Counted from the first letter of the stretch, positions 27,075-42,500 are shown. The stretch: 64,000 nt of DNA from an uncultured Actinomycetota bacterium (GCA_963735115.1 CAVTJR010000001.1:401958-465957); one strand, 5' to 3'. Numbers and translations are program-made. Notes: generated by a model not told the origin, from the letters alone.

Positions 27075-27281
27075 TCAGCAAGAACAAGGGGGAACGCTCT
27101 TGCCAACGTGACCGGCTGTGCGCTGCCGGATGAACCGGGTCTGAGCGAGCGCATACTCGAGGCACTCCGCCACGACGTCGCAGCGCCAACACAATGCCTT
27201 CGCCTGAGTCGTCGAGTCGCCTCTCTCGGCGACGCTTGCCTGAGCAGTGGCTCGTCCTGCCTGCGATGAGCACGTGTTCAT
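27075..27281 (-). CDS. WhiB-like (Wbl) protein, atypical C-terminus
   Basis: Cys pattern C-X26-C-X2-C-X5-C (TCSS...LCWRCDVVAECLEYAL) matches the Wbl Fe-S cluster motif. The usual G[VI]WGG turn is absent. Confidence 0.35.
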   Translation of the reverse strand: MNTCSSQAGRATAQASVAERGDSTTQAKALCWRCDVVAECLEYALAQTRFIRQRTAGHVGKSVPPCSC

Positions 27282-27312
27282 ATCCCACGCTGCCGCGTGC
27301 CGGCAGGAGAGA

Positions 27313-28383
27313 ATGGCCGACATGGACGGTCATCTGATCCTGGTGGACGGCTCCGAGCGCGACGTCACCGCGGAGAACGTCAAAAGCCTGCTTGATTCCT
27401 CAGCCCGCTTTTGGCTGGACTTGGCCGGCCTTGACCAAGAAACCGGAACGGGGTTGCTGCGCGACACCTTCGGGTTTCACCCCCTCGCGGTCGAAGATGC
27501 CGAGCATTTCGGGCAACGCCCAAAGCTCGACTCTTACGATGGGTTCGCACTGCTCGTCGTGTACGGCGCCACGCCGACCGGGCAACTGCTAGAAGTCCAC
27601 TGCTTCTACGCCGAGAACTATCTGGTCACCGTCCACCACGACCCGTGCCTGGACCTGATCGCCCTGGCCGACCGACTGCGACGGCAAGCCGGTCCTCAGC
27701 CGGACCACGTCATGCTTCTCTACCGGGTGGTCGACGCCCTGGTGGACGGCTACTTTCCCGTGCTCGCCAGTCTCGACGACCGGATCGACGAACTGGAAGA
27801 CGAAATCCTCCAGCGACCGACAGAGCAGCAGCTCGGCCAGCTGTTCGACCTGAAGCGGTCCCTGATCGCGCTGCGCAAGGTGGTGACCCCCCAGCGGGAC
27901 ATGTTTGCCACACTGCTGACCGGCGCAGACCTGTTACCGGGTATGACGCCGGACGCCGAGCGCTACTTCCGTGACCTGTACGACCACCTCATTCGGATCA
28001 GCGACCTCGTCGACAGCTACCGCGATCTGACGAGCGGCGCTCTCGACACTCACCTGTCCACAGTCTCCAACCGACTGAACGTGGTCATGAAGCAGCTCAC
28101 CATCATCGCCACCATCTTCCTGCCGATGAGCTTCTTGACCGGGTTCTTCGGCCAGAACTTCACGTGGATGGTCAACCGGCTGAGCTCCGTGCTGGTTTTT
28201 CTTGTGGTTGGCATCGGCTTGCAGCTTGTCACCGCAGCCGCACTGGTCGTCATGTTCCGCCGCCGCGGCTGGCTGACCTCGGACGGCACCGTGCCACCCG
28301 CCACCCCGGCGGACCGACCCCGGGTGGGACACGACCAACGCTGGTACTTGCTCCACCCGCCGAAACGGTCGAATGCGCCCTAG
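27313..28383 (+). CDS. corA: CorA-family divalent cation transporter
   Basis: Cytoplasmic funnel domain plus two C-terminal TM helices. The signature loop is FLPMSFLTGFFGQNF, a GMN-type motif present as GQN. Confidence 0.8.
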   Translation: MADMDGHLILVDGSERDVTAENVKSLLDSSARFWLDLAGLDQETGTGLLRDTFGFHPLAVEDAEHFGQRPKLDSYDGFALLVVYGATPTGQLLEVHCFYAENYLVTVHHDPCLDLIALADRLRRQAGPQPDHVMLLYRVVDALVDGYFPVLASLDDRIDELEDEILQRPTEQQLGQLFDLKRSLIALRKVVTPQRDMFATLLTGADLLPGMTPDAERYFRDLYDHLIRISDLVDSYRDLTSGALDTHLSTVSNRLNVVMKQLTIIATIFLPMSFLTGFFGQNFTWMVNRLSSVLVFLVVGIGLQLVTAAALVVMFRRRGWLTSDGTVPPATPADRPRVGHDQRWYLLHPPKRSNAP

Positions 28384-28533
28384 CGCCACCCCCACGCCTC
28401 GCACTTGGGGGAGTGTTCGGCTCGAGGAGGGACGCATGTGCTCAATGATCCAGCGTACTGGCCGCCGCTCTTGCCGTTCGGCGCCGCTCTATTACCCCTC
28501 GCCGGCTGAGCAAGCGGATTCCACCTGAATTTC

Positions 28534-28580
28534 AACGGTGGGCCCGGCAGGGATCGAACCTGCGACCGAAGGATTATGAG
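28534..28580 (-). repeat. att copy B: 47-bp copy of a tRNA-Met 3' half
   Basis: Identical to 25864-25910. It differs from the intact tRNA at 44697-44769 only by a compensatory T-stem pair change and the trailer. Confidence 0.9.
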
Positions 28581-28598
28581 TGCCGTGGGGGCCATTTC

Positions 28599-28717
28599 GG
28601 TCACCAGCAGATTTTGACGTAAGTCCAGGTCACAGGCCATTTCTGAGTGACCGGTAGTGACCCCTAGAACCCCTCTGTGACCCACCGTTGGGTCACGTTT
28701 GGGTCACGCCGGGTCAC
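28599..28717. repeat. cluster of 8 GGTCAC/GTGACC motifs (candidate integrase arm-type sites)
   Basis: ...TCGGTCACC..CAGGTCACAGG..GAGTGACCGG..TAGTGACCCC..CTGTGACCCA..TTGGGTCACGTTTGGGTCACGCCGGGTCACGCG. The tandem TTGGGTCACGtTTGGGTCACGCC recurs at 44615-44637. Confidence 0.6.
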
Positions 28718-28794
28718 GCGGATGGTGTCCTCCTAGCCGTTGACAGCGCTGATGGCGTCACTCGCACTCTCCGAGCCCAGCTGGAAATGCTCGA

Positions 28795-29070
28795 TCATCT
28801 CCGGTACGCGTCACGCCGGTGGCGAATGGCGGCGACTTGAACCTCGCGGGCGTTGTCGTCGATGAGGTAGAGCACCCGATAGCTCCCCCTCCTCGCCGAC
28901 CAGGCGGGCGCGAGCGGAGGCGCTAGCGGCTTTCCAACCCGATGCGGGTTGTCCAGCAGAGGCCCGGTGATGAACGCGTAGACCGCCACGGCCACCGTCT
29001 CGGGCAATACCTCAGCAAGCGCTCGTGCGGCCGGCCGGGCGATCCGTAGCCGGTAGGGCTCGCCGCTCAC
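28795..29070 (-). CDS. RelE/ParE-family toxin
   Basis: 91 aa, ...RRGSYRVLYLIDDNAREVQVAAIRHRRDAY. It overlaps the upstream antitoxin stop. Confidence 0.8.
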   Translation of the reverse strand: MSGEPYRLRIARPAARALAEVLPETVAVAVYAFITGPLLDNPHRVGKPLAPPLAPAWSARRGSYRVLYLIDDNAREVQVAAIRHRRDAYRR

Positions 29071-29357
29071 TCAGCGGCGGGAAGACGGCCGGCGGCTCTC
29101 ATGACAGAGGTGAGTTCGTCTCTGTCGAGGCTGTCACTCTGGTTCAACGACTCGACACCCACTAGATGGTCACGTAGGAGATCGGCGTCGGCGAGCACGG
29201 CGATCGTCTCGCGTAGGGCGTCGTAGTCGTCGGCGCCGAGGAGCACGGCGACCCTCTGACCGTTCCGAGTGATCTCGAACCTCTCGTGGGTCGATGAGGC
29301 TTCCTCGACCAGCCTCGACAGCTGGGCCCGAGCCTCCGCTACGGGTAAGGTCGTCAT
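29067..29357 (-). CDS. Phd/YefM-family antitoxin
   Basis: MTTLPVAEARAQLSRLVEEASSTHERFEITRNGQRVAVLLGADDYDALRETIAVL. Confidence 0.85.
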   Translation of the reverse strand: MTTLPVAEARAQLSRLVEEASSTHERFEITRNGQRVAVLLGADDYDALRETIAVLADADLLRDHLVGVESLNQSDSLDRDELTSVMRAAGRLPAAE

Positions 29358-29502
29358 GTACAGAATTATAGCGCATCAGAGCTGACCACTGGCTGCTGAG
29401 CCCAGCCAAGACATGCGCAGCGAACAGCTAAACCGGCACTTCGGAATTGGCGGGGGCATGACGATCCACCAGCTCGCCTGAGCCCGCTGCCAGCGTTGGG
29501 CG

Positions 29503-30046
29503 ATGTCCGCCACACGCAAGCTCCCGGCCCGACTTGAGACCGACCCGGCGAAGGCTCTCGAGCTCCTCGTCGGACTGCCGGAGGTGAACGTGCTCGGCAT
29601 CTTCGTCGACAAGGCCCACACCGAGCTGCATGTCGAGACGCGAACCGAGACGGCGGGCTGTCCCGAGTGCGGTGTCGTGGCGAGGTTCAAGGGCTTCCGC
29701 GAGGTACTCCTCACCGACCTGCCTGCCTTCGCCAAGCCGACGAGGCTGCACTGGCACAAGCGGCGCTTCTCCTGTGTGGAGGCTGCCTGCCCAAAGGGGC
29801 ACGTCACCGAGGAGGATCGGCGCATCGCACCACCGCGCATGAAGCTCACCGACAGAGCCGGACGTGCCGCCACCAAGGAGGTGGGGTTCCACGGCCGCAC
29901 GGTCAACGAGGTGGCGACGAGCTTCGGCTGCGACTGGCACACCCTCAACGACGCCGTCATGGCATATGGGCGAGCACTCGTCGATGCGCCCGGCCGCTTC
30001 GGCGAAGTGGAGGCGATCGGTCTCGACGAGGTCGCCTTCGTACGGG
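29503..30046 (+). pseudogene. ISL3-family transposase, 5' fragment (split by IS21 insertion)
   Basis: zf-ISL3-like CPECG and ...KRRFSCVEAACP... The reading frame continues exactly at 36323 once one TACGGG copy is removed (..EVAFVR|AAPYGVTQFSTSIVDV..). Confidence 0.8.
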
Positions 30047-30052
30047 TGTCGA

Positions 30053-30148
30053 CCGTCACGTAATTCCCTCGCTTCTTCGATTCTCCGTCACGTAATTCCC
30101 TCGCTCGCCGTCACGTAATTCCCTGACGCCCCCGTCACGGAATTCCCT
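30053..30148 (+). repeat. IS21 left-end multiple terminal repeats (4 copies of CCGTCACG[TG]AATTCCCT)
   Basis: Copies at 30053, 30085, 30108 and 30132. Two inverted copies lie at the right end (36270-36286, 36294-36310). Multiple subterminal repeats are typical of IS21 ends. Confidence 0.85.
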
Positions 30149-30225
30149 CTGGCGGCGAGGGGACATCCACTCCTCCGGCGGCTGTCCGACCGAGGATTCC
30201 TCCCGTCGAGAGATCGGGAGGGGAG

Positions 30226-31788
30226 ATGGCAAGGAGAACGATGAAAGTGATCGACATCGTCGAGGTCCTCACGCACTGGCATGCCGGGCGGAGGATGGGC
30301 GAGCTCTGCTCGTCGCTCGGCATCGACCCGAAGACCGTGAGGAAGTACACCGCACCGGCCATGGCGGCGGGCATCTCGCCCGGCGGCCCGCCGCTGTCGC
30401 CAGACGAGTGGTCGCAGCTGGCGCGGGGCTGGTTCCCCGAGCTCACCGACGACTCGTCCCGCCAGACGACCTGGCCCGAGATCGAAGGACACGCCGAGCT
30501 GATCAAGTCCTGGCTCGGGCTCGTGACGATCTCGACCATCCATCAACGGCTCCGGGACGATCACGGCCTTGTCGCCTCGGAGTCCTCACTGCGGCGCTAC
30601 CTCGAGGCGAACATGCCCGAGGAGGTGAGACGCGCCCAGGTGACGGTGCTGAGAGAGACGCCTCCGCCCGGCGAAGAGGCACAGGTGGATTACGGCCTGC
30701 TCGGCCGCTGGGTCGACCCGGCCACGGGCAAGGTGCGCCGGGTGTGGGGTTTCATCATGGTGCTCGCCTTCAGCCGCCTCATGTTCGTGCGCCCGGTGCT
30801 GAAGATGGACTCCCGCAACTGGGTCGAGTGCCACGTCGCCGCCTTCGAGTTCCTCGGCGTCGCCCGCCGGATCGTGCCCGACAACCTGAAGACCGGAGTC
30901 GTCAAGCCTGATCTCTACGACCCGCTCATCAACAAGGCCTTCTCCGAGATGGCCGCCCACTACGACTGCCTCATCGACCCCGCCAGGGCTTTGAAGCCGA
31001 AGGACAAGGCACGCGTCGAGCGGCCGGTGCCCTATGTGCGGGACTCGTTCTTCGCCGGGCGATCCGCCGAGTTCGCCGACCTCGAGTCCATGCAGGCCGA
31101 TGCCCTTCGCTGGTGCCGGGCTGTCGGCAACCTGCGCCAGTGCCGGGGACTCGACCGGTTCTCGCCCCAGGCTGTCTACGACACCGAAGAGCGCGACGCC
31201 ATGACGGCCGTGCCCATGCTCCCCTTCGAGATCGCCTCCTGGTCGAAGGTCACGGTCAGGAACGACATCCACGTCAAGGTGGGAAAGGCCATCTACTCCA
31301 TGCCGTGGCGCCTCATCGGCCAACGCCTCGACGTCCGCGAGGGCTACCGGGTCGTCGAGGCCTATCTGGACGGCGTCCTCGTGAAGACCCATGCCCGCAT
31401 CGAGAAGGGCAAGCAGACCGACCCGGCGGACTATCCGCCCGAGAAGATCGCCTTCTCGATGCGATCCGCCGTCTGGTGCAAGAAGCGAGCCGAGGAGGCG
31501 GGCGCCAGTGTGGCGGCGGTGATCGCCGTGCTCTTCGAGGTGAACGCCCTCTACCGCCTCCGCCAGGCACAAGGGGTCATCCGCTTAGGCGAGCTGCACG
31601 GCAACGACCGCCTCGATGCCGCCTGTGCCCGCGCACTTGCCTTTGGTGACCCGAGCTACCGCACCATAAAGGGCATCCTTCGCGCCGGTCTCGAGAACGA
31701 CGGCGCCGATGCGCCACAGGTCCCGGAGGTGCCCGCCCACCTGCACGGGCCGCTCGCCCTGTTCGAGATCGAGGGGGCGGTGTCATGA
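30226..31788 (+). CDS. istA: IS21-family transposase IstA
   Basis: N-terminal HTH (IDIVEVLTHWHAGRRMGELCSSLGIDPKTVRKY), a DDE integrase core and typical length (520 aa). The stop overlaps the istB start. Confidence 0.9.
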   Translation: MARRTMKVIDIVEVLTHWHAGRRMGELCSSLGIDPKTVRKYTAPAMAAGISPGGPPLSPDEWSQLARGWFPELTDDSSRQTTWPEIEGHAELIKSWLGLVTISTIHQRLRDDHGLVASESSLRRYLEANMPEEVRRAQVTVLRETPPPGEEAQVDYGLLGRWVDPATGKVRRVWGFIMVLAFSRLMFVRPVLKMDSRNWVECHVAAFEFLGVARRIVPDNLKTGVVKPDLYDPLINKAFSEMAAHYDCLIDPARALKPKDKARVERPVPYVRDSFFAGRSAEFADLESMQADALRWCRAVGNLRQCRGLDRFSPQAVYDTEERDAMTAVPMLPFEIASWSKVTVRNDIHVKVGKAIYSMPWRLIGQRLDVREGYRVVEAYLDGVLVKTHARIEKGKQTDPADYPPEKIAFSMRSAVWCKKRAEEAGASVAAVIAVLFEVNALYRLRQAQGVIRLGELHGNDRLDAACARALAFGDPSYRTIKGILRAGLENDGADAPQVPEVPAHLHGPLALFEIEGAVS

Positions 31789-32288
31789 CGAGGCCGCACC
31801 AGATCGAAGAGAGCCTGAAGTCACTTCGCCTCTCGGGCATGCTCGAGACCCTCGATGCACGACTCGCCCAGGCCAAGGCGGGCGAACTCGGCCACCTCGA
31901 ACTCCTGCAGGTGCTCTGCGAGGACGAGATCGCACGGCGGGAAGCAGCCGGGCTCGCCAACCGCCTGGCCGCTGCCCGCTTCGAGAAGGCCTGCACCATC
32001 GAGGAGTTCGACTTCTCCTACAACACCAAGGTGCCGGTCGCCCAGATACGCGACCTCGCCACCCTCCGCTTTGTCGAATCGGGCGAGGGGGTGATCATCC
32101 ACGGGCCCGTCGGTGTCGGCAAGACCCACATCGCCCAGGCCCTCGGCCATGCCGCCTGTCGGCGGGGGCACCACGTCATCTTCACCAAGACCTCCCGCCT
32201 GCTCGCCGAGCTCGGCGGCGGCCATGCGGACCGGACTTGGGCCCAGCGCCTCCGGCGCCTCGCCAAGCCGGCTGTGCTGATCCTCGAC
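31785..32288 (+). pseudogene. istB: IS21 helper ATPase IstB, 5' fragment (split by RIT insertion)
   Basis: Walker A GPVGVGKTH. The frame ends at ..PAVLILD, where the RIT inverted repeat begins, and continues at 35692 (DFAMRDFT...). Confidence 0.85.
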
Positions 32289-32439
32289 TAATACCGAGGG
32301 CGAGATAACCCCGACGCGGGAGCGGCGACTCGCGGTCGGCGCTGCTCACGACACGTGGGCGGGCTGCGACACTCGGCATAATCCCACTCGGCCCTGAAGC
32401 CTTGTAGTTGGAGCGCTCTGCTCCGACAAAGGAGGAACG

Positions 32440-33651
32440 ATGGGCAAGGTTTCATGGACACGGGGCGATGGCCCCCTGGCGCCGTTCGCAGAGGGCTTCG
32501 AGTCGGAGCTCCGTCGGCTCGGCCACCCGCCGAGCGCCGCGAGGCATCACATGCACCTGATGGGCCAGCTGAACCGCTGGCTCACGGGCAAACACCTCGG
32601 TGTCGGCGATCTCAACCCCGTTGAGGCCGAGCTGTTCTTCTCATCACTCCGAGCCGCCGGCGTACAGCGAGTGCCGACGCTGGCCAGCTTGGTACCTCTG
32701 TTCGCTTTCCTCAGGCAACAGTGTGCAATTGCGCCGGTGGCGGCCCCAACACGGACACCACGGACGGAACTACTCGATCGCTATCGCCACCACTTGGTCA
32801 ACGACCGTGGCCTGACGCCGGTCACCGTGCGGCGCTACGACACCTTCGCCAGACGCTTCCTCGCGAACAGGGCAGCCGCGCGGGGTGCCGGGATCGGCAC
32901 CGAAGGGCTGTCAATCGCAGAGATCAACGGCTACCTGCTTGACACCTGCTCTCGGTTAGTCGTCGAATCGGCCAAGCGGGAAGCGGCTGACCTGCGTTCG
33001 CTGCTCCGCTTCCTGTACCTAGAGGGGCTCATTGAGACAGACCTCGGGCTCGCCATGGCGCCCGTGGCCACCTGGCGGGGTACCCGTCTGGTACCGACGC
33101 TGAGCGCTGCTGATGTCTCAGCGGTTCTGGCTTCCTGTGATCGTTCGACCGTGAGCGGCCGTCGTGACTACGCGATCTTGATTCTCCTGGCCAGGCTGGG
33201 GCTCCGCTCCGGAGAGGTGGCCGCATTGAGGCTCGCTGACGTTGACTGGCGCGCCGGTCAGCTGCTCGTGCGAGGAAAGGCACGGCGCCAGGATGTGCTC
33301 CCGCTGCCGGTCGAGGTAGGAGAGGCACTGGTGGCCTACTTGGAAGCCGGCCGCCCGTCGTCTCAGTACCCAGAGGTCATACTCACGCTCTACGCACCGC
33401 CGCGCCCGATCCGACCATCCTCGATCACCAACGTCGTCTACCACGCCAGCCAACGAGCTGGGCTCGCTCGCGTTGGTGGGCACCGCCTCCGTCATGCGCT
33501 CGCCAGCGAAATGCTGCGCCAGGGTGGGAACCTGATCGAGATCGCCCAGGCTCTTCGGCAGTCGGATCTCGCCACGACCTCGGGATACGCCAAGGTCGAC
33601 CGCGAAGCCCTGCGGGCGGTCGCTCAGCCGTGGCCGGGAGAAGGCCGATGA
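32440..33651 (+). CDS. tyrosine recombinase, RIT subunit A-like
   Basis: 403 aa. Catalytic region ...GLRSGEVAALRL...HRLRHALASEMLRQGGNLIEIAQALRQSDLATTSGYAKV. Confidence 0.85.
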   Translation: MGKVSWTRGDGPLAPFAEGFESELRRLGHPPSAARHHMHLMGQLNRWLTGKHLGVGDLNPVEAELFFSSLRAAGVQRVPTLASLVPLFAFLRQQCAIAPVAAPTRTPRTELLDRYRHHLVNDRGLTPVTVRRYDTFARRFLANRAAARGAGIGTEGLSIAEINGYLLDTCSRLVVESAKREAADLRSLLRFLYLEGLIETDLGLAMAPVATWRGTRLVPTLSAADVSAVLASCDRSTVSGRRDYAILILLARLGLRSGEVAALRLADVDWRAGQLLVRGKARRQDVLPLPVEVGEALVAYLEAGRPSSQYPEVILTLYAPPRPIRPSSITNVVYHASQRAGLARVGGHRLRHALASEMLRQGGNLIEIAQALRQSDLATTSGYAKVDREALRAVAQPWPGEGR

Positions 33652-34568
33652 CCGAGTTCGCCGTGAGAGCACAGGAATACCTGCGCCTGCGCCGATCGCT
33701 CGGGCACGAACTCGATGACGCCGTTCGCCTCCTTCCCCGCTTCGTCGCCCACCTGGAAGCGATAGGCGCTCCGGCGATCACGACTGAGATCGGGCTCCAG
33801 TGGGCACAGCGCCCTGACGCCGATCCCGCCAGTTCGATCTGGCTGCGACGCATGACGGTTGTCCGAGGCTTCGCCCACTACATGTCGGGCATCGACCCGA
33901 GGACCGAGGTGCCGCCACTCGGGCTGGTGACCTTCCGCCCGCGCTGGCGGCCGCCGTTCATCTACTCCGAGGACGACGTCGTAGCGCTGATGAACGAAGT
34001 CCCACGAGTCGTCCCAACGCCCTTTCGGGCTCTCACGCTCCAAACAATGATCGGCTTGCTGGCTGCGACCGGCATGCGGATCGGCGAGGCCATCGGCTTG
34101 TCGCGGTCCGACGTCGATTGGTCCGACGGCGTCGTGATCGTGCGGGAATCGAAGTTCAACAAGTCAAGAGAGATACCACTGGCCCCGAGCTCGGTAGCCG
34201 CGCTCCGGGTTTACGCCGAGGTGCGTGACGGGAACGTGCCCGAGCCCGGGAGTCCAGCCTTTTTCATCTCGGGTCGCGGAACTCCCGTCATATATGGGGT
34301 CTTCGGCGACATCTTCCGCCGGCTGCTGGCGGCCTCGCGAGTCGGCGAGGACTCGCCGGTTCGGCCGCGGGTTCATGATCTGCGACATTCTTTCGCTGTC
34401 CACACCCTCGTCCGATGGTATCGAGCAGGAGAAGATGTCGGCGCTCTCCTGCCACGACTCTCCACCTACATGGGGCACATCGAGGTGCGGTACACCTATT
34501 GGTACCTCTCGGCTGCCCCGGAGCTGTTGGCTCTAGCGGCCGACCGCCTTGAAAGGGGCGAGAGATGA
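33648..34568 (+). CDS. tyrosine recombinase, RIT subunit B-like
   Basis: ATGA overlap with the upstream gene. GMRIGEAIGL...VHDLRHSFAVHTL...LSTYMGHIEVRYTYWYL. Confidence 0.85.
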   Translation: MTEFAVRAQEYLRLRRSLGHELDDAVRLLPRFVAHLEAIGAPAITTEIGLQWAQRPDADPASSIWLRRMTVVRGFAHYMSGIDPRTEVPPLGLVTFRPRWRPPFIYSEDDVVALMNEVPRVVPTPFRALTLQTMIGLLAATGMRIGEAIGLSRSDVDWSDGVVIVRESKFNKSREIPLAPSSVAALRVYAEVRDGNVPEPGSPAFFISGRGTPVIYGVFGDIFRRLLAASRVGEDSPVRPRVHDLRHSFAVHTLVRWYRAGEDVGALLPRLSTYMGHIEVRYTYWYLSAAPELLALAADRLERGER

Positions 34569-35554
34569 GTTCGGTCGCGCCCACCATGCAGATGTTCTTC
34601 ACCGATCGACTCGCCAAGCAGCGCCAGGTGAGCCCAGCCACTGTGAAGTCCTATCGGAACACCTTCGTGCTCCTGCTGCGCTTTGTGCACGGCCAGACGG
34701 GAAAGGCGCCGTCCACGCTCGACTGGTCGGACCTCGGGGCGGGTGTCATCTCGGACTTCTTGGACCATCTCGAGCACGACAGGCACAACAGCGCCCGCAG
34801 TCGGAACACTCGCCTTGCCGCAGTGCGATCGCTGTTCCGGTATGCGGCACTTCGACATCCCGAGCACGCACACCTGATCCAGCAGGTGCTTGCCATACCG
34901 CAGAAGCGTTACGACCGGACACTGGTTCCCTTTCTGGAGCCGGGCGAGGTCGCCGCGTTGCTTGCCGCTCCGGACCGCAGCCGGTGGGAGGGTCGACGTG
35001 ACCATGCACTGATCTGCTTCGCCGTGCAGACCGGGCTGCGTCTCTCCGAGCTCACAGGCGCCAAGTGTGGCGACATCGAGCTAGGGACTGGGGCGCATGT
35101 GCGCTGCATCGGAAAGGGGCGTAAGGAACGCTGTGTCCCGCTGACTTCAGACACCATCGCCGTCCTGCAGGTCTGGCTACAGGAGCGGGGCGGGCTTCGC
35201 GACGAACCGCTATTCCCGACTCGAACGGGACGTCGCCTCAGCGACGACGCAGTTGAGGCTCGTCTCGGTGTCCACAAACAGACGGCCGCCCGCCTTCTCC
35301 CTTCGATTGGTGCGAAGAAGCTGACGCCGCACGTACTGCGCCACACCTGCGCCATGAACCTCCTTCGAAGCGGCGTCGAGGTCGTTGTCATCAGCCTCTG
35401 GCTTGGCCACGCAGATATCCGTTCCACCCATTGCTATTTGCACGCCGACATGAGCATCAAGGAACGGGCGTTGGCCCGAGCGGCGCCAACCTCATCGAAG
35501 CCGGGACGCTACAAGGCGCCGGACAAGTTGCTCGCCTTCTTGGAGAGTCTGTGA
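34565..35554 (+). CDS. tyrosine recombinase, RIT subunit C-like
   Basis: ATGA overlap. GLRLSELTGAKCGDI...PHVLRHTCAMNLLRSGVEVVVISLWLGHADIRSTHCYLH. Confidence 0.85.
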   Translation: MSSVAPTMQMFFTDRLAKQRQVSPATVKSYRNTFVLLLRFVHGQTGKAPSTLDWSDLGAGVISDFLDHLEHDRHNSARSRNTRLAAVRSLFRYAALRHPEHAHLIQQVLAIPQKRYDRTLVPFLEPGEVAALLAAPDRSRWEGRRDHALICFAVQTGLRLSELTGAKCGDIELGTGAHVRCIGKGRKERCVPLTSDTIAVLQVWLQERGGLRDEPLFPTRTGRRLSDDAVEARLGVHKQTAARLLPSIGAKKLTPHVLRHTCAMNLLRSGVEVVVISLWLGHADIRSTHCYLHADMSIKERALARAAPTSSKPGRYKAPDKLLAFLESL

Positions 35555-35691
35555 TAATCCCGACGGCTTAAGTGTCCCAGCACTGCCGGGCGCCACCGAG
35601 CACTCGGGGCCAGTAGGCCCAACCCTCCGACTATCGGGGTTATCCCGCCCTCGGTATTAGTCGAGTAAACCCGAAGTCGGCTTTACTCGAC

Positions 35692-35934
35692 GATTTCGCC
35701 ATGCGGGACTTCACCGTCGCCCAGGCCGACGACCTCTACGAGCTTGTGACCGAGAGAGCCGGCAAGGCGACGATCTTTACGGCCAACAGGATGGGCCAGG
35801 ACTGGTACGGGCTGTTCCCGAACCCCGTCGTGGCCGAGTCGATCCTCGACCGCATCGTCAACACCGCCCATCACGTCCATATGGACGGCAAGTCCTACCG
35901 ACCGAAGAACCGGCCGAATCGAGCAGGATCGTGA
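35692..35934 (+). pseudogene. istB: IstB, 3' fragment
   Basis: DFAMRDFTVAQADDLYELVTERAGKATIFTANR...WYGLFPNPVVAESILDRIVNTAHHVHMDGKSYR is the conserved IstB C-terminus. Confidence 0.85.
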
Positions 35935-36248
35935 GACGGACCTGCGCGGCAAAGGGGTGCGAGAACGAAGTGCCGCCGAGGAACGGGCGCTTCGGGCGCA
36001 ACCCGATCTACTGCTCGCCCTCGTGTCGAAAGGTCCCGCCGGCGAATCTCCCCGTCGCCGTCGAGATCGCCCACGAGCCGACTGACGATGCTCGTCCCGC
36101 CGGCCGCATCTTCTCGGTGAAGCTCAGCCGCGGCGACAAGACCGTGACGGTCGCCGAGGGACTCGGACGCCCCTCGGCCGAGCACCTCGCCGGTGAGATC
36201 CTCTCGATCCTGGCACCGTCGCGACCGAGAGGAGGAACGATCAGCTAG
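35931..36248 (+). CDS. small Cys-rich (zinc-ribbon-like) protein inside IS21, downstream of istB
   Basis: GTG overlaps the istB stop (GTGA). CAAKGCENEV...IYCSPSC. It ends about 20 bp before the right-end repeats. Confidence 0.4.
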   Translation: MRRTCAAKGCENEVPPRNGRFGRNPIYCSPSCRKVPPANLPVAVEIAHEPTDDARPAGRIFSVKLSRGDKTVTVAEGLGRPSAEHLAGEILSILAPSRPRGGTIS

Positions 36249-36322
36249 ACATGAGTTGCACGCCGGATGAGGGAATTACTTGACGGAATCGTCAGGGAAT
36301 TACGTGACGGTTGACATACGGG

Positions 36323-36770
36323 CGGCCCCCTACGGGGTCACCCAGTTCTCCACCTCCATCGTCGACGTGAGAGCCGGCCAGCTCCTCGACGTCGTGCCCG
36401 GCAGGGGCGGGGCCGAGCCGGCGGCCTGGCTGCGCAGTCGCAGCGAGGACTTCCGCTCCTCGATCCGCTACGGCACCTTGGACCTCTCCGGCGCCTACCG
36501 GGCCGTCTTCGAGGAGGTACTTCCCGGTGCCGTCCTCGTCGCCGACCCGTTTCATGTCGTCAAGCTCGCCAACGAGCGTCTCGACGACTGCCGCCGCCGC
36601 GTGCAGAACGACGTCCTCGGCCACCGCGGACGGAAGGGAGACCCTCTCTACCGGTGCCGTCGCCTGCTCACGCGGGCCGACGAGCGGCTGAGCGACAAAG
36701 GGCGTACCAAGCTCGTCGGGCTGCTGCGGGCCGGCGACCCACACGGCGAGGTGGCCCCTATGCCGAATGC
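36323..36770 (+). pseudogene. ISL3-family transposase, central fragment (3' end missing)
   Basis: AAPYGVTQFSTSIVDVRAGQLLDVVPGRGGAEPAAWL...FHVVKLANERLDDCRRRVQ...RLLTRADERLS...DPHGEV. Similarity to the family ends at about 36765, where composition drops. Confidence 0.7.
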
Positions 36771-37249
36771 TCAACGGGGTTTGCTGTCAACAGCAGTTCG
36801 TTCGGAAATAGGCCGCTACACCTATCAATAGACGTTCAGATTGGTGTGTTTGTAAGATTGTATGAGCAGTTCCGGGGCTCCGGAGCCTCGACCACAGTCA
36901 TGTTCCGGTGACCACCCGAGGTCGCTCGGCAGATGACGCCAACTTTCCGTTACGTCCATCGACGCCACCGTCTGCGCGCACTCAGCCATCAGGCCTTGCA
37001 CGATCCAAGCCGGGTATTCCGCTAGTCCGCGTCTGGGCGCATGCAAACACGCCAAGCTCACCTCCAGCACGTCGAGCCATAACCCTGTCCGCGGCCCCGA
37101 GCGAGCTACAACCGCGGACCGTCAACGGCAGACTAGCGGCGAAGGCTCACGAGCTCCTTGACGCGCCGTTCGCTTGCGCGTACACTCCCAGCGTGAGGCG
37201 GACTGGGATGGTCGGTAAGTAACGGTCTTTATGATCTCCCAGGCGCTTA

Positions 37250-38056
37250 ATGTGCCACTTTCCTCTGCGGTACTCTTGCTCTGGGAAGCTGGGCGAAAGT
37301 CTCAATGTCGGTCAGAACACAGGCAGCTTGTTCGTTGGAATCATTGGTTCACTTACGGCTCCAGGTCCCTCGCAAGTTGATACTTCAGATGATCAGGCGC
37401 TGCTGCTTTGGCTTGGAATGGAAGAGTATTCCACTCCTACGGGTTACTACTGTGACTTGGATGGCGAGCTTACCCATTACTGCTGGACCCAGGTAGGCCT
37501 AGCAATGGGCACGTTCGGAGATCCGTATTGCCCAGGCAATCCGCGGACCACGACTTCGGACACGAGCTACGAGGTCTACTTCGAACGGTACGATATCAAC
37601 GGTTGCGCGGACGTGCTGAGCACTGTCGACATTGATACGAGCGACGCTGTTCCATTTCAAGACAACTGGACAGGCGAGTATATCGATGGAGGCTACCAAT
37701 ACGAATCTCAGGTTGTCGACAGCTCTGACCACTACGTTGAAATCGGCACTGGTGACCTCTACTACCTCGACATTCACGCGGAAGCACAGGCAGAGATTCA
37801 CACTGGGAGCGATACAACCTGTCCCACGCTAACCGGTGGCTCGCCGTATCAGCACTTCGGCGATCAAGTCGATGGTAGCTGGGATGGTGGATCCGCCAAA
37901 CTTCAGGTCGAGAACTCCTCGACCGATACATTCAGTCCGTGGTCGACTGCTGATGGACCCAGTGCTCCCTTCTCGGATAGCCCCTATTGGGTAACTGAAG
38001 GAGGTCATTGGCCAGCTGATTTCCAAACTAACGGCCCAGGGGGTGGACCCCCGTGA
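37250..38056 (+). CDS. low-GC acidic Cys/Tyr/Asp-rich protein, unknown function
   Basis: 268-aa ORF with no recognisable motif. The start is uncertain. Its stop overlaps the next gene's start, which suggests an operon. Confidence 0.45.
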   Translation: MCHFPLRYSCSGKLGESLNVGQNTGSLFVGIIGSLTAPGPSQVDTSDDQALLLWLGMEEYSTPTGYYCDLDGELTHYCWTQVGLAMGTFGDPYCPGNPRTTTSDTSYEVYFERYDINGCADVLSTVDIDTSDAVPFQDNWTGEYIDGGYQYESQVVDSSDHYVEIGTGDLYYLDIHAEAQAEIHTGSDTTCPTLTGGSPYQHFGDQVDGSWDGGSAKLQVENSSTDTFSPWSTADGPSAPFSDSPYWVTEGGHWPADFQTNGPGGGPP

Positions 38057-39327
38057 TTCGAGTTGGATCACCGGACAGGGAGAGGCGTAATAGGCTAGCA
38101 ATTCTGGGTATCGTCTGCCTTTGCGCCGTGACGCTGTCCGCATGTGGAAGAGGGATCGAAACGAGCAACGGTCATTCCCGCATTAGCAAACCACCCAACC
38201 AAGCTGCGTACCGCTATCTCACTCGGTCAACAGTTGTGCCAGCCAACGGACCTTCTTGGTTGCTCCCAGCCGGATTCAGCACTTTGCAGAGCCTGACCGG
38301 TGACCCGAACGGAACTGGCGCCTGGTTCTGGGACAGTACCTCCAACGAAGACGTGATTTTCAACTCAAGCGCAGGCAATATCTCAGAGTGGCCTGTGCTA
38401 TCGGGTAGCAACTTTCAGCAGAGCGAACAGGCGGGCGGGTTGGCAGTCGACCCGCAAGGCAACGTTTGGTTGGCTATTAACCTGACGCTCATCGAGTTGG
38501 ACCCGGCGACGGGAGCCACGGAGACTTGGACAATTCCCACTCCGAGTGCAAATCTCGCGGCTGCTAGCTTCGAACCGTCGGGCGCGGCTGAGATCGCAGT
38601 GACCGGCTTGGCGGCGAGCCCTTTGGGGACGATCGCCATATTGACCAGTAATTCGAGCACAGTTGAGGTATTCGACCCTCGATCGTCCGAATTCGACAGC
38701 ATCTCAATGCCGACCGATGACGACCTTCCGACCGCTGCGGCGTTCTCAGGAGACGGGACCTTGTGCATTGGCTTCTCAGCAGTCGAGGAAGGCACGGGCG
38801 GTACTGCTTCCAACCTGATGATCCTGAGCCCTAATGGTCAAGCCGCAACTTACTCACTTCTCACACCGGGATCAGCCTGGGACATCGCCCCCTTAGGATC
38901 GTCGAGCTTTGTCGTCGGAGATGAATCGCCTGAGTTGGCGACCACTTCTGGAACTATCACGAGCATCAATTCACCGAGTGCCTTGGTGGGAAGCGGGCAG
39001 CCAATGACGCCCCTTGTCGTCGCAGGCGGCGACGTCCTAGTCGGACACGCTCAAGGTGGACTGGTTGCGTTTCCCGACGATGCAAGTTCTGTTGCCCAAG
39101 CTACAGAGGAGTCGACGTTCATTCCGTCGGCCCAGGTTTGCGGCCCCAGCGGAGACGCTCCCGGTCCGGGCACGTCCACCGAGGGGACAGTCTGTGGCGC
39201 GCCTGGATATTTTGATGTCGTTGCCGACGGCGATGGAGACCTCTGGACCGTCGGAAGCGGCGGCGTCTCCGAGGTACCGCCTCAAACGGTTAGCGCTGCC
39301 ATCACGAGGGCCACTAACAGGGCCTGA
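38053..39327 (+). CDS. low-GC lipoprotein, beta-propeller-like repeats, unknown function
   Basis: Lipobox LAILGIVCLCAVTLSAC. Repeated ...G..WF/WL..., ...DPQGNVWLA..., ...DGDLWTV... strands resemble NHL/Vgb-lyase-type propellers. Confidence 0.6.
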   Translation: MIRVGSPDRERRNRLAILGIVCLCAVTLSACGRGIETSNGHSRISKPPNQAAYRYLTRSTVVPANGPSWLLPAGFSTLQSLTGDPNGTGAWFWDSTSNEDVIFNSSAGNISEWPVLSGSNFQQSEQAGGLAVDPQGNVWLAINLTLIELDPATGATETWTIPTPSANLAAASFEPSGAAEIAVTGLAASPLGTIAILTSNSSTVEVFDPRSSEFDSISMPTDDDLPTAAAFSGDGTLCIGFSAVEEGTGGTASNLMILSPNGQAATYSLLTPGSAWDIAPLGSSSFVVGDESPELATTSGTITSINSPSALVGSGQPMTPLVVAGGDVLVGHAQGGLVAFPDDASSVAQATEESTFIPSAQVCGPSGDAPGPGTSTEGTVCGAPGYFDVVADGDGDLWTVGSGGVSEVPPQTVSAAITRATNRA

Positions 39328-39573
39328 CGGATACGGACCCCCTTCACCAGCGGCTGGGCTCGGATGCCGAACCTTGCATGTGACCGTCGAGAACCCTCCC
39401 GCATCGCAGGCGACGAAGTTGCCCACATCCCGCCGCGGCACCGTCGTCGCACAACTGCCAGCCGTCGGGCACAAGTAACTCCGTGGACTGCCGTCGTCCT
39501 TCGAGTGGATGACCCCGCCGGCCAGGGGTCAGTTCCCCGCTGACGATTCTGCACAGCGCAGCCTGAGAAACGG

Positions 39574-42500
39574 CTACAGCCCCGGGCCGAGCTGCGGCCG
39601 CGGCGGCTCGTGATGGGGTGTCGGATCGGGGCGTCGTAGCTGGCGGTTCCCAGCGGGTACGGGTTGGGGAGCTGACCTTCTTCGGATGCCGTCGAGTCGG
39701 TCCCGGTGGGCATCGAGGCCGGCAGCTAGTCCATCGGCGGTCCGACATAGATCCCACGTTCGCTCGCGCGAGAGGCGGGAACGAGCCTCCTGGCGCTCCA
39801 GGCGGGCGGCGAGCCGCTCGACGTCTCCTCGGTGGCGAGCGATCTCGGCGTCGAGACGGGCGGCTTCGGGGACGACGTGAGTCTGCGAGCGCTGCTCGGC
39901 GTCCTTCGCCCGCTCGGCCCAGCTGCCTGCTTCTCTGTTGGCCACACGGCGTTCGCGCCAACGACTCGCGTGCTCTGCTCGCCAGCGTGCCGAGGCCATC
40001 CCAACTGTGGCCTCGGCAAGATCGACGACGGCGCTGCCGGCCTCGGAGTACGCGTAGCTGCCCGAACCTGTGTCCAGATCGGCCCTGGCCTGCTGGGCTT
40101 GGCCCAAGGCAGCTTGAGCCTCGCCGAGGGCCGGGGCGAGATCGGGCGGTCTGATCCTCGCATTGGCCTGGGCGACGATCGTGGTCTCGGCGTGGACGAT
40201 GGCGGCGATCTGGAACTTTTGCTCGTCGCCCATACCGGCGACGGCCTCGGCGGTGAGCTTCTCGTGATCGAGCAGACCGGTGTCGATGGCCCAGGTTGGC
40301 GTGCGCTGCGTCGACCAGTCACGTCTCAGGTCCTCGGCGGCCTGGGCGAGACCGTCGGCAACGGTCCAGGCGTGTGAGGATTCGCGACCGCGGCTCATGG
40401 CCACGTAGGCGAGCTCGCGTCCCTCGCCGTCGGCGAAGAGGTGGGCTCGGGTCACCGTGGCGCCTTGACTGCGGTGAACCGTTGTGGCGTATCCGTAGCC
40501 GAGGCGTTCGGCGCCGGCCTGCTCGCCGGTGAGCCGGACCTCTCGGCCGTCGCTCGTGCGGAGATCGATCGCTCCGGTGGCTGGATGAACGGCATGCACG
40601 ACGGCCCGCTCGGAGGTGACGAGTCTGCCGCCCGGGCCTGGGGCGAGGGTGACCACTTCGTCGCCGGCGCGGTAGGCGTTGCCGCCGGGGCAGACGAGCT
40701 CGGGGCCGGAGAGGCGGGCCGTTGCGTCCATCCAGCTCCTCGCCCGTTCGTTGAGCTCGGAGACGTTCGCCCGTCGCCAGGCGTAGAGGCCGACGTCGTG
40801 CCCCGCTGCGACATCGGCGCTCCAGGCGTCCACGGCTGCCTGCAAGGCTGTTCCTCTATCGGCTTCGGCGTGGATGCGCTCGCGCTCGACATAGAACGAG
40901 ATCGCCTCGGCCACCTCGCCGTCGCGAAGTGCCGCCAGAGCTTGGCGCTCCTCGGGGTCGTGCTGGCGTCGGTTCTCGCTGAGATGATGGACGGCATCCG
41001 GGTGGCGGGATACCAGTGCGCCGAGGGCGCCGCCGGGGCCGACCGGCCCGATCTGATGGTGGTCGCCGACGAGGATCAACTTGGCGCCGGCCGCTTCCAC
41101 ATGGGCTGCCAGGCGGACGAGGTCGACGTCGTCGGTCATCCCCACCTCGTCGAGGATGACGGCCGTTCGTTCGCTGAGGCTGAGTTGATGGTGGTCGAGT
41201 CGCCAGATCAAGCTGGCGAGGGTGCGCGACTCGCCGATCTCGGCTTCGCTCGACAGGGTGCGAGCGGCCTGGCCCGAGGTGGCGGTGCCGAGCACCTGGT
41301 AGCCGGCCTCGGTGAAGGCGGCCGCCACCACCTTCAACATCGTCGTCTTGCCGGCGCCGGCGACTCCCTCGACGAGCTCGGCGCCTCGACCGGAGGTGCA
41401 GATGGCCACGGCCGCCGAGCGCTGCTCCTCCGAGAGCTCGGCCCCGAGGCTCGCCTCGGCCTCGTCGATAGCCGCCTCCGCCTCGACCTCGGTGACCGCC
41501 GGGGCGTCATCGCGTGCGAGTTGGCGCTGCAGGCTCTCGGCGATGGCCGTCTCGCGGGCAAGTACCGAGGCGAGGGAGTACACCTGCTCTCTGGCGCCGC
41601 TCACCCCGACGAGGGGGACGCACTCGGGATCGGCGAGGGCGCGGTCGACGAAGGCGTCGAGGAGGGCCGGTCCCCGCCCGTAGAGGTGGGGAGCAAGGAC
41701 GACGACCACGTGTCGCCGGGAGAACACCTTGCGGCGGGCAAGCTCGCCGTCGTGTCCGAGGACCTCGGACAGGAGCCGGCGGCCATCCTTGGGCGTCAGC
41801 GACCGAACCTCGTCCCGGGCGGCCTCGACCGATGCCAGCAGCCGCTCGACCGGCCAGCCGGCAGCTTCGAGCTCGGCGCGCCAGCGGTCCACCAGCTCCC
41901 TCTCTGCCTCGTGCTCCTTGGAGGACCGGGTGGTGCGGGCGGCGATGCCTCGGGCGCGATAGGACGTCGCGCCGCGGCGCTGGCACTCGGCCTCGATCTC
42001 GGCTGCGCGCTTCGAGTGCAGTGCGAGGACCTCGTCGGGGATGCCGGCGATCCGCCAGTGTCCGAGTTTCCCGGACGGACCCGGATCGGCTTCGATCCCA
42101 TAACCCAGCCCGACGGCTACGCGGGCAGAGGCCACCCGCCCCACCATGGTGGCGGCATGCAGGTGCTCTCGCCACAAGGTCGTGTCGGCTGCCTTCCAGC
42201 CGCCACGGTCGTCCCGCATCTCGACGAGATTGCCCACAAGGACGTGATCGTGCGGGCTGGGATCGCCTGCCCGCGAGGTGGCGTGACGGGTGTGGGCGTA
42301 GATGAGCCCTCCCGTCTGGCTCGCCGTTGCGGCTCTCCCTCGCCGGCCGCCCATCTGACGGGTGACCCGGTCGAGATAGGCCAGGGTGGCGTCTCGCTCG
42401 GCGTCCATGATGGCGTGCATGTCCTCGGCTCGGCCGATCACGCCCAGCTCTGCGACGCTCTTGTGGCCCGAGATGACGAGCTCCATGCCCGGACGGCGGG

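Follow-up and report, generated by a model that had tools for sequence, protein, structure and literature searches.

Recombinase-in-trio (RIT) elements have been described as units some 3.5 kb in length whose inverted repeat of 28-29 bp is accompanied by an overlapping palindrome (PMC3414803) and whose open reading frames (ORFs) overlap by 4-8 bp at ATGA (PMC2864759, PMC3414803). Two successive core-binding domains in RitA and an extra conserved C-terminal helix in RitC are further hallmarks (Smyshlyaev 2021). Published copies lie inside mobile-element genes, namely, IS66 tnpA, a Tn6049-like transposase gene and radC (PMC2864759, PMC3414803), and pHG1 of Cupriavidus necator has been named as a RIT-rich plasmid (PMC3414803). 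Earlier work was unable to define the ends of these elements (PMC3414803), while target specificity, empty-site formation and mode of movement are listed as not tested in a 2023 comparison (PMC10214605). Though RITs are widespread, their mechanism is the least understood among bacterial tyrosine-recombinase transposons. Here, a RIT element was considered in a 64,000-nucleotide stretch of DNA from an uncultured Actinomycetota bacterium (GCA_963735115.1 CAVTJR010000001.1:401958-465957; hereafter, the window), where it splits the istB gene of an IS21 element that itself splits the transposase gene of an ISL3 element. Comparison with related copies suggests, at the level of sequence, that the position of the RIT in istB is not accidental and that a large, mainly actinobacterial RIT lineage integrates at a shared motif.

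Among other tyrosine-recombinase transposons, the flanking hexamers of Tn916, termed coupling sequences, may be mismatched and are derived in part from the previous insertion site via a circular intermediate. The relatives of the window RIT resemble Tn916 in that their flanking hexamers may disagree. Tn916, by contrast, is conjugative, uses one integrase plus Xis and shows weak target preference, and its donor hexamer can lie on either flank, whereas the target-left hexamer of the RIT relatives appears always to be native. In Tn554 and SE elements, one side of a new insertion carries six base pairs that come from the flank of the previous site (PMC10214605). Tn554 and the SE elements/GInts share with RITs the character of site-specific, multi-recombinase tyrosine-recombinase transposons apparently without true target duplication, and their six-base footprint is the pattern of the right-hand hexamer (H3) of the RIT relatives considered below, the window copy itself being uninformative and no donor-recipient pair having been seen directly. 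When compared by composition, their protein sets are TnpA/B/C or IntA/Tfp/IntB/Srap rather than RitA/B/C, and the Rit and TnpA subgroups have been placed apart (Smyshlyaev 2021). Moreover, Tn554 and SE elements are without the symmetric inverted repeats and palindrome of RITs and have chromosomal targets, such as att554 in radC, whereas the target of the window RIT is a transposon ATPase gene.

The window element stands closest to the RITs of Cupriavidus metallidurans CH34 and C. necator pHG1 (Van Houdt 2009/2012; Janssen 2010; Ricker 2013), with which it shares the gene order ritA-ritB-ritC on one strand, ATGA overlaps, three recombinase subfamilies, a length of about 3.4 kb and terminal repeats composed of two 9-mers. 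A palindrome at one end and variable end sequences are likewise shared with published RITs (PMC3414803). The window copy differs from the pHG1 RIT in belonging to an Acidimicrobiales-type actinobacterial lineage, its proteins being 36-52% identical to those of pHG1. In BLASTP searches, RitA matched pHG1 RitA with 205 bits and pHG1 RitB and RitC with no more than 62 bits, RitB matched pHG1 RitB with 208-227 bits and pHG1 RitA and RitC with no more than 48.5 bits, and RitC matched pHG1 RitC with 342 bits (52% identity) and pHG1 RitA and RitB with no more than 62 bits. The three proteins thus pair with RitA, RitB and RitC, all cross pairs remaining at or below 62 bits. A reading of the locus made from the sequence alone (hereafter, the sequence-only reading) had proposed three overlapping tyrosine recombinase genes in the organization of a RIT, and this was borne out by PF00589 matches in all three products and by ATGA overlaps at 33648 and 34565.

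The catalytic residues, namely, the box-I arginine, HxLRH and the tyrosine, are kept in RitA, RitB and RitC. As for the hallmarks of the protein ends, the tail of RitC (KPGRY..LLxFLxxL) is conserved with that of pHG1 RitC and runs 19 residues past the XerC model; a helix is predicted at residues 320-328, but with a predicted local distance difference test (pLDDT) score below 50. RitA has an N-terminal stretch of some 110 residues ahead of the region aligned to Xer models. Its single-sequence AlphaFold model, with a pLDDT of 40.6, is unusable, although it hints at helical bundles at residues 14-95 and 108-194, and BLASTP between the two N-terminal halves of RitA found no similarity. Judged from its reading frames, the insert keeps ritA, ritB and ritC intact, and its class as a RIT element is assigned by reciprocal pHG1 matches.

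That the window holds a three-level nest, as had been claimed, is confirmed, down to the single base, by empty sites recovered for both of the inner layers. The IS21 element forms a 6,270-bp block (30047-36316) with TACGGG on both flanks, the first copy (30041-30046) being the 3' end of the 5' part of the ISL3 gene. At the point where IS21 lies between two TACGGG copies in the window, the intact ISL3 of a comparison contig (L126) shows just one. When IS21 and one TACGGG were removed, the restored ISL3 DNA aligned with L126 without gaps over 1,046 bp at 95.4% identity, and the restored protein matched NF033550 with 205 bits (cutoff, 180) in one stretch, residues 42-318 on model positions 2-268 of 370. 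This agrees with the proposal that the ISL3 frame stops at 30046 and resumes at 36323 once one TACGGG is taken away. Coverage of the model ends at position 268 because the ISL3 gene is truncated. An intact transposase (P0241; 439 residues), encoded on L126, is 96% identical to the restored protein.

The same approach was applied to istB. The restored IstB protein, of 248 residues, covers positions 2-235 of the 238 positions of Pfam IstB_IS21, matches NF038214 with 230 bits (cutoff, 200) and is 99% identical to a full-length protein (P0001). The contigs encoding P0001 (L020-L022) contain the same IS21 without the RIT insert, and the restored IS21 of 2,867 bp aligns end to end with the intact copies of L020 and L021 (98.3% identity), the only gap being a single base. 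At the empty site, these copies read ...GCTGATCCTCGAC|GATTTCGCC, with one CTCGAC, and at this point the window has 3,403 extra bases, so that a break in istB at 32288/35692 by an insert of about 3.4 kb is confirmed. The restored ORFs and DNA are as such colinear with intact family members, whether L020/L021, L126 or the Pfam and NCBIfam models. Because CTCGAC is found on both sides, the boundaries of the insert are ambiguous by 6 bp.

The insert is more than the segment between its inverted repeats. The sequence-only reading correctly recognized 26-bp repeats with one mismatch, but took them as the bounds of the element, whereas another 32 bases of insert lie beyond the right repeat. This right-end module, which is not in the empty site of the intact IS21, consists of a hexamer (H2', GTCGAG), a 20-bp palindrome and a second hexamer (H3, CTCGAC). 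H2' is the inverse of the CTCGAC (H1) that precedes the left repeat, such that the repeats measure 26 bp, or 32 bp with the hexamers. The palindrome (35666-35685), found at the ritC end in the window, can be written TAAACCCGA-AG-TCGGCTTTA, with arms that resemble the terminal 9-mer of the inverted repeats. A third 9-mer lies inverted at the left end (32373-32381). In all, nine matches to the 9-mer motif T[AT]A[ATC]NCCGA were counted in the 3.4-kb insert, eight of these being symmetric at the ends, as compared to three in the other 60.6 kb of the window. Related RITs also carry the right-end module, always on the istB C-terminal side. A 50-nucleotide inverted repeat reaching into istB was considered as a similarity between target and element; it was found in none of the other families and is, apart from the hexamer, a coincidence.

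To compare insertion sites, about 100 related copies were collected, namely, 20 non-independent loci from two exact-protein look-ups (L026-L045), 80 loci from one metagenome scan that were unselected by context, and several finished plasmids. RitC relatives at 62-84% identity proved very abundant, and IstB fragments lay on both sides of nearly every copy in the look-up and metagenome-scan sets. After clustering of the flank peptides, a Pfam scan of one member from each cluster yielded 70 classifiable copies (69 loci and the window's own). The target was IstB_IS21 in 45 of the 70, an IS630-type transposase (DDE_3 or its N-terminal domain) in seven, an AAA_22 (TniB-like) ATPase in five, an ISL3 transposase in five, and an IS701-like transposase (DDE_5), an IstA and a sulfatase in one each; for five copies, the target could not be named. 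All 45 istB insertions are at the same Walker-B aspartate codon, and 19 others follow the equivalent aspartate codon of transposition genes. When the metagenome-scan loci were taken alone, IstB accounted for 27 of 51 and other transposition genes for 19 of 51. The restored IstB fragments of the cluster representatives gave one Pfam stretch across the junction.

At these sites, the junction follows an aspartate codon in 59 of 60 cases and the target-left peptide ends in VD, LD, ID or CD in 56 of 60. The target DNA has the consensus TC|NTCGAY|GAnnTnG, in which hexamer positions G4 and A5 are invariant, and overlies the last Walker-B codons of istB (hhhhD|D/E). Recognition of DNA rather than of a gene is indicated, because the sole sulfatase site carries the same DNA motif (GTGCTCGAC|GACTTC). 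The sequence-only reading had called the window a rare case of a RIT insertion site readable at base resolution; the site is indeed so readable, but it is not rare, this lineage being habitually found at this istB codon.

Ten copies on long contigs (L036-L045) have cores that differ by 0-2 of 3,364 nucleotides. Yet, the IS21 types that host these near-identical cores share only about 35% identity in IstB; the genomic loci differ, the cores lie in both orientations, and one of them is in the sulfatase gene. Across the relatives, the layout, read in the sense of the target gene, is target-left, H1, core with repeats, H2', 20-bp palindrome, H3 and target-right, with cores of 3,333-3,420 bp and ritABC in either orientation. 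In the 48 copies with both ends readable, the palindrome was at the ritA end in 21, at the ritC end (as in the window) in 17, at both ends in seven and at neither in three. In every IstB target with both flanks, the palindrome is on the istB C-terminal side. The same architecture is seen in istB on plasmids of cultured strains, namely, pR1CP1 and pROB02 of Rhodococcus opacus and pG-2_2 of Streptomyces parvus.

Several of the less common targets were noted individually. The IS630/DDE_3 targets (L053, L055, L070, L081, L086 and L105) have hexamers such as TGCGAC at a ..CD|N..H site, AAA_22 targets are found in L089, L099, L109, L111 and L076, the DDE_5 target in L096 and the IstA target in L071. 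Two unclassified targets (L117 and L120) read ..VD|FIHVLEYLW. In the subclades that occupy other aspartate codons, the elements' own hexamers match their targets. This suggests that target preference evolves together with the hexamers and palindrome of the element.

The hexamers that flank the insertions were next considered. H1 equals H3 in 15 of 37 copies and differs from it in 22. Within the set of ten near-identical copies, each IS21 type has its own constant H1 (ATCGAC in 5/5 and CTGGAC in 3/3). H3 varies (CTGGAC, CTCGAC, ATCGAC and ATGGAC), its variants coming from the H1 hexamers found at other sites; overall, H1 and H3 of these copies differ at 15 of 60 positions. L038 and L043, representing one locus in two ENA samples, have flanks that are 98.6% identical, identical cores and the same H1, while H3 is ATGGAC in one and CTCGAC in the other, a difference at two of six positions. 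ATGGAC itself looks like a mosaic of ATCGAC and CTGGAC. Read at this level, the flanking hexamers do not look like a target duplication; rather, H3 and H2' look as if carried over from earlier sites.

These features can be brought together in a model of how the element may move. The Rit tyrosine recombinases would bind the 9-mers, of which the window element has eight at its ends, and conservative site-specific recombination would proceed across a 6-bp overlap, probably via a circular form. In this scheme, the left and right junctions would recombine across the hexamers to yield an excised or copied circle, whose junction would run from the right repeat through H2', the left palindrome arm, a 2-bp loop, the right arm and the hexamer to the left repeat. 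Such a junction would be a near-perfect palindrome comprising two 9-6-9 core-type sites placed back to back. Either core site could recombine with the target, giving rise to both gene orientations while the palindrome stays on the GAnnTnG side. H1 would be the target's own hexamer, with H2' and H3 being fossils of earlier insertion sites. Insertion would inactivate istB and leave the RIT parked in a multicopy, horizontally mobile safe site. Copies with two palindromes or with none would be expected from recombination between two oppositely arranged copies. The circular form, the use of either core site and the order of strands are all inferred.

Other explanations for the position of the RIT deserve consideration. 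Nested insertion sequences are common, the window represents a single event and the exact window RIT is seen at one site, as would be expected were this ordinary nested transposition in which the RIT fell into istB by chance and its location says nothing of target choice. Such a reading is very improbable given the 45 of 70 relatives at one istB codon boundary and the 19 more after an equivalent aspartate codon, the presence of near-identical cores in IS21 elements with 35% IstB identity, which argues against chance landing, and the DNA consensus with invariant positions shared by the flanks. Taken by itself, the window nest is an ordinary case of nested insertion, its value being as a lead to a site-specific, transposon-targeting RIT lineage. 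The association with istB could also have been inherited from one ancient insertion, after which an IS21::RIT composite spread and diversified using IstB supplied in trans. One IS21 type indeed carries the RIT at several genomic loci (L036, L037 and L042), as fits composite movement, and the window composite is fixed in many samples. A single ancestral composite could not, however, account for cores 0-2 of 3,364 nucleotides apart in IS21 types whose alignable DNA amounts to one stretch of about 326 bp at 82%, because under co-divergence the RIT would have to be as diverged as its host. Within one IS21 type, the RIT is found in both orientations and with different H3 hexamers, a sulfatase gene and other transposon genes are occupied at the same motif, and uninterrupted copies of the same IS21 exist, while the incongruence of RIT and host in the P0216 family argues against hitch-hiking as the main cause. 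Inheritance from one ancient insertion is, as such, thought unlikely to explain the istB association, although composites probably also spread as units as a secondary route, since one IS21 type carries the RIT at several loci. This bears on the dated order of events proposed earlier. ISL3, then IS21, then RIT is the simplest order and is likely but not proven by the geometry of the nest; the order of the inner two events is open to doubt because an IS21::RIT composite could transpose with IstB provided in trans, and the 3' truncation of ISL3 has no assignable place among the IS21 and RIT events.

As regards the hexamers and orientations, a RIT that moved by staggered cuts with a true 6-bp duplication, followed by mutation or assembly error where the hexamers differ, would explain why H1 equals H3 in the window, such that removing the insert and one hexamer restores istB exactly, and why the two also agree in the 15 concordant relatives. 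Against such duplication stand the 22 discordant copies and the ten cores that are no more than 2 nucleotides apart yet differ between H1 and H3 at a quarter of positions (15/60). The variant H3 hexamers, moreover, each correspond exactly to an H1 found elsewhere in the same community, and mis-assembly would be unable to put a foreign hexamer beside a copy's own flank, because each junction falls within a single read length. Tyrosine recombinases are not known to make duplications by fill-in repair, which also counts against duplication. We judge true duplication to be an improbable account, with carry-over of hexamers from earlier sites being preferred. The two gene orientations could alternatively arise after integration, through in-place inversion of the core between H1 with the left repeat and the right repeat with H2'. 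The hexamer-plus-repeat units at the core ends are mutual inverted repeats, of 32 bp in the window, and L036 and L042 share the IS21 type, H1, H2' and H3 but have the core in opposite orientations. However, L036 and L042 represent separate genomic copies, such that the collected loci yielded no before-and-after pair from one locus, and the H1 site has a 9-mer on one side alone. Inversion in place is accordingly rated as unlikely, albeit less so than true duplication or inheritance from one ancient insertion, and is not mutually exclusive with the choice of orientation at integration that the circle model predicts.

Several points weigh against a site-specific, hexamer-carrying lineage that moves through a circle. 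The 20 look-up loci are not independent samples, and the comparison loci are mostly metagenome contigs, where a 3.4-kb repeat can be mis-joined in short-read assembly. The seven copies with two palindromes and the three with none may be assembly artefacts; not all palindrome-free copies are such, however, because they are also present in the finished plasmids pHG1 and pR1CP1. In the window copy, where H1 and H3 are both CTCGAC, carry-over and a 6-bp duplication are indistinguishable. In the case of pROB02, a related uninterrupted istB bears the hexamer of H3 and not that of H1; although the IS21 is divergent, this lends no support to H1 being the native hexamer. The exact window RIT was found at one site only, in 21 contigs, such that its own mobility is not demonstrated. 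The predicted circle junction (right repeat, hexamer, palindrome, hexamer and left repeat) was found in none of the collected loci, and RIT movement has never been demonstrated experimentally (PMC10214605). With these points taken into account, a site-specific RIT lineage that homes into transposons, together with nesting, hexamer carry-over and a circle-based mechanism, is considered to be the probable joint explanation. Put more specifically, that the lineage is a transposon parasite homing to DNA encoding a conserved catalytic aspartate (the Walker B of IstB and TniB-like ATPases, and the DDE of IS630, ISL3 and IS701-like transposases) by means of a two-core palindromic junction, with the element retaining the hexamers of its last insertion sites as a record, is given slightly better than an even chance.

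The pROB02 case involves a second plasmid. In pRB29 of Rhodococcus oxybenzonivorans (L128, 6450-6700), ritC is truncated and, downstream, an uninterrupted istB target homologous to the occupied one of pROB02 is found; the empty istB hexamer of pRB29, GTCGAT, is the H3 of the pROB02 insertion and not its H1.

What the window and its relatives add to the published picture of RITs is a defined istB target motif, ends at base resolution and a hexamer carry-over pattern seen across about 100 copies. For tests of the mechanism, they supply exact ends, natural before-and-after sequences and predictions of both the attachment site (TC|NTCGAY|GAnnTnG) and the circle junction, while near-identical copies in unrelated targets argue for current RIT activity. 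Were the transposon-parasite reading correct, an attachment site, element ends and a model of transposition would be defined for the first time in a mobile-element class that has never been made to move in the laboratory. In the literature searched, which did not include Ricker 2013, where priority is possible, no link between RITs and istB was found. If homing is real, one class of transposon lives in, and disables, others, which bears on IS21 dynamics and on the notion of safe sites. For annotation, split 'IstB' fragments around three 'XerC/XerD-like' genes should be read as a single event.

The features of the nested locus are listed in Table 1.

Table 1. Features of the ISL3, IS21 and RIT layers, with positions counted from the first nucleotide of the window.
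Feature	Position	Strand	Details
ISL3 left end, up to transposase start codon	29435..29502	+	Inverted repeat begins GGCACTTCGGAATTG; L126 homology begins at 29435 (L126 position 333)
ISL3 transposase gene, 5' part, codons 1-181	29503..30046	+	Zn_ribbon_ISL3 and DDE_Tnp_ISL3; NF033550
IS21 left end	30047..30148	+	23-bp inverted repeat TGTCGACCGTCACGTAATTCCCT and three further subterminal copies of CCGTCACGTAATTCCCT
istA, IS21 transposase, 520 aa, intact	30226..31788	+	NF033546, rve, Mu-transpos_C_2
istB, 5' part, codons 1-168, ending ..PAVLILD	31785..32288	+	Ends in target hexamer H1, CTCGAC (32283-32288)
RIT left inverted repeat	32289..32314	+	TAATACCGAGGGCGAGATAACCCCGA, comprising two 9-mers, TAATACCGA and TAACCCCGA, 8 bp apart
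ritA, 403 aa	32440..33651	+	PF00589; GLRSGE, HRLRH, Y383
ritB, 306 aa	33648..34568	+	PF00589; GMRIGE, HDLRH, YWYL; start overlaps ritA stop, ATGA
ritC, 329 aa	34565..35554	+	PF00589 and Phage_int_SAM_1; GLRLSE, HVLRH, Y291; start overlaps ritB stop, ATGA
RIT right inverted repeat	35634..35659	-	25/26 match to the left repeat; inner 9-mer at 35555-35563
Right-end module of RIT insert	35660..35691	+	32 bp: H2' GTCGAG (35660-35665), palindrome TAAACCCGAAGTCGGCTTTA, H3 CTCGAC (35686-35691)
istB, 3' part, DFAMRDFT... to stop codon	35692..35934	+	Restored IstB profile match
Third IS21 ORF, 105 aa, Cys-rich	35931..36248	+	Also in the intact IS21 of L020 and L021
IS21 right end with its 23-bp inverted repeat (last bases ...GTTGACA) and one subterminal repeat	36270..36316	-	Repeat analysis
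Second TACGGG copy, 6-bp IS21 target duplication	36317..36322	+	Present once in intact ISL3 (L126)
ISL3 transposase gene, middle part	36323..36756	+	Ungapped alignment to L126 stops at 36756 (L126 position 1378; gene at 401-1720)

The IS21 layer was described earlier as lying between the two ISL3 parts with 23-bp terminal repeats and multiple subterminal repeats, and it does. The terminal repeats match at 22 of 23 positions and run TG...CA, and the terminal 17-mer is present in four copies at the left end and two at the right, where 0.01 would be expected by chance. The product of istA scores 187 bits against NF033546 (cutoff, 160). Overlapping istA and istB genes, TG...CA ends, multiple subterminal repeats and equivalog scores above cutoff are all traits of the IS21 family. 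Target duplications in this family measure 4-8 bp, a range that includes the 6 bp seen here. In L020 and L021, the same IS21 is flanked by a different 6-bp duplication, GTCGAC, so that TACGGG can be taken as the normal signature of this element. The window IS21 differs from other IS21 elements, which normally have two genes, in containing a conserved third ORF that gave no match in Pfam or NCBIfam. Its product, which includes ..CAAKGCENEV...YCSPSCRK.., is possibly a zinc ribbon; the ORF lies at 6176-6493 in L020 and at 2945-3262 in L021. Owing to its disrupted istB, the window IS21 should be non-autonomous.

The ISL3 layer belongs to its family by virtue of a single transposase with Zn-ribbon and DDE_Tnp_ISL3 domains. 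The left inverted repeat of ISL3-family elements usually starts GGCTCTTCG, which the GGCACTTCG that begins the window repeat resembles. Loss of the 3' end of the gene was correctly noted earlier, although homology to L126 places it at 36756/36757 instead of about 36765. About 114 codons of the transposase and the right end have been lost, such that the left end, at 29435, is the only one that can be placed, and the open frame that continues to 36831, past the ISL3 homology, is fortuitous. Split by IS21 and with its last 114 or so codons and right end gone, the ISL3 is a dead copy. As to what caused the truncation, no partner repeat was found at the truncation point. A sequence at this point, CTATGCCGA (36758-36766), was considered as the remnant of a RIT end and rejected, being without a second 9-mer, a hexamer or a partner repeat. 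Elsewhere in the window ISL3 gene, an unoccupied look-alike of the RIT target, CTCGAC|GAGGTCG (30023-30035, coding for ..GLD|EVAF..), corresponds to the first DDE aspartate of ISL3 itself and lies 18 bp upstream of the IS21 insertion point. The same ISL3 aspartate is occupied in L057, L094 and L097 by ISL3-targeting relatives of the RIT.

The distribution of the window locus was also addressed. The window's own proteins were found in 15-21 public contigs, all representing the same nested locus, and look-ups of the window IstA and RitC revealed neither a second site nor a stage at which ISL3::IS21 was without the RIT. The window copy is therefore fixed in an Acidimicrobiales-type lineage, as judged by the source names of its relatives. 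Megablast of the whole region against plasmids gave weak istB similarity at most, and a RitB protein search of genome contigs returned one irrelevant 25% match. In one version of the nested locus (L017, 3878-5087), ritA is split into ORFs of 166 and 198 amino acids, and as such, the RIT is decaying in at least one lineage.

Other observations concern RIT copies beyond the window. In two finished plasmids, R. opacus pR1CP1 (L024, 5380-8920) and C. necator pHG1 (L025, 5529-9873), a RIT lies inside a RIT. The inner RIT has no palindrome at either end; on its flanks, a long part of the interrupted rit gene is duplicated in inverted orientation, over 87 perfectly matching bp in pR1CP1 and over more than 300 bp in pHG1. 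Assemblies were seen to break exactly at the hexamers flanking the RIT core, and stand-alone contigs of 3.3-3.6 kb are common and linear. One Logan contig of 3,403 bp (L132) was considered as a RIT circle and rejected, since it is linear and ends at the hexamers.

Finally, the surroundings of the nest were examined. Right after the ISL3 truncation, GC content falls from about 67% to 53-60% in a block spanning 36757-39330, the ORFs of which have no clear family, namely, one of 268 amino acids (37250-38056) and one of 424 amino acids with a faint SGL match (38053-39327). Toxin-antitoxin pairs lie around the nest, with PhdYeFM/ParE at 28795-29357 and PhdYeFM/PIN further upstream. Genes for CorA, a WhiB-like protein and a large TrwC-type relaxase are also nearby. 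These neighbors were noted at 27247-29357 and at 39574-42807 (minus strand). This suggests that the wider context is a conjugative or integrative element. The upstream neighbors of the nest vary between contigs, as in L001 and L011, with NYN/DUF4747 in one version and an ion-transport gene in the other.

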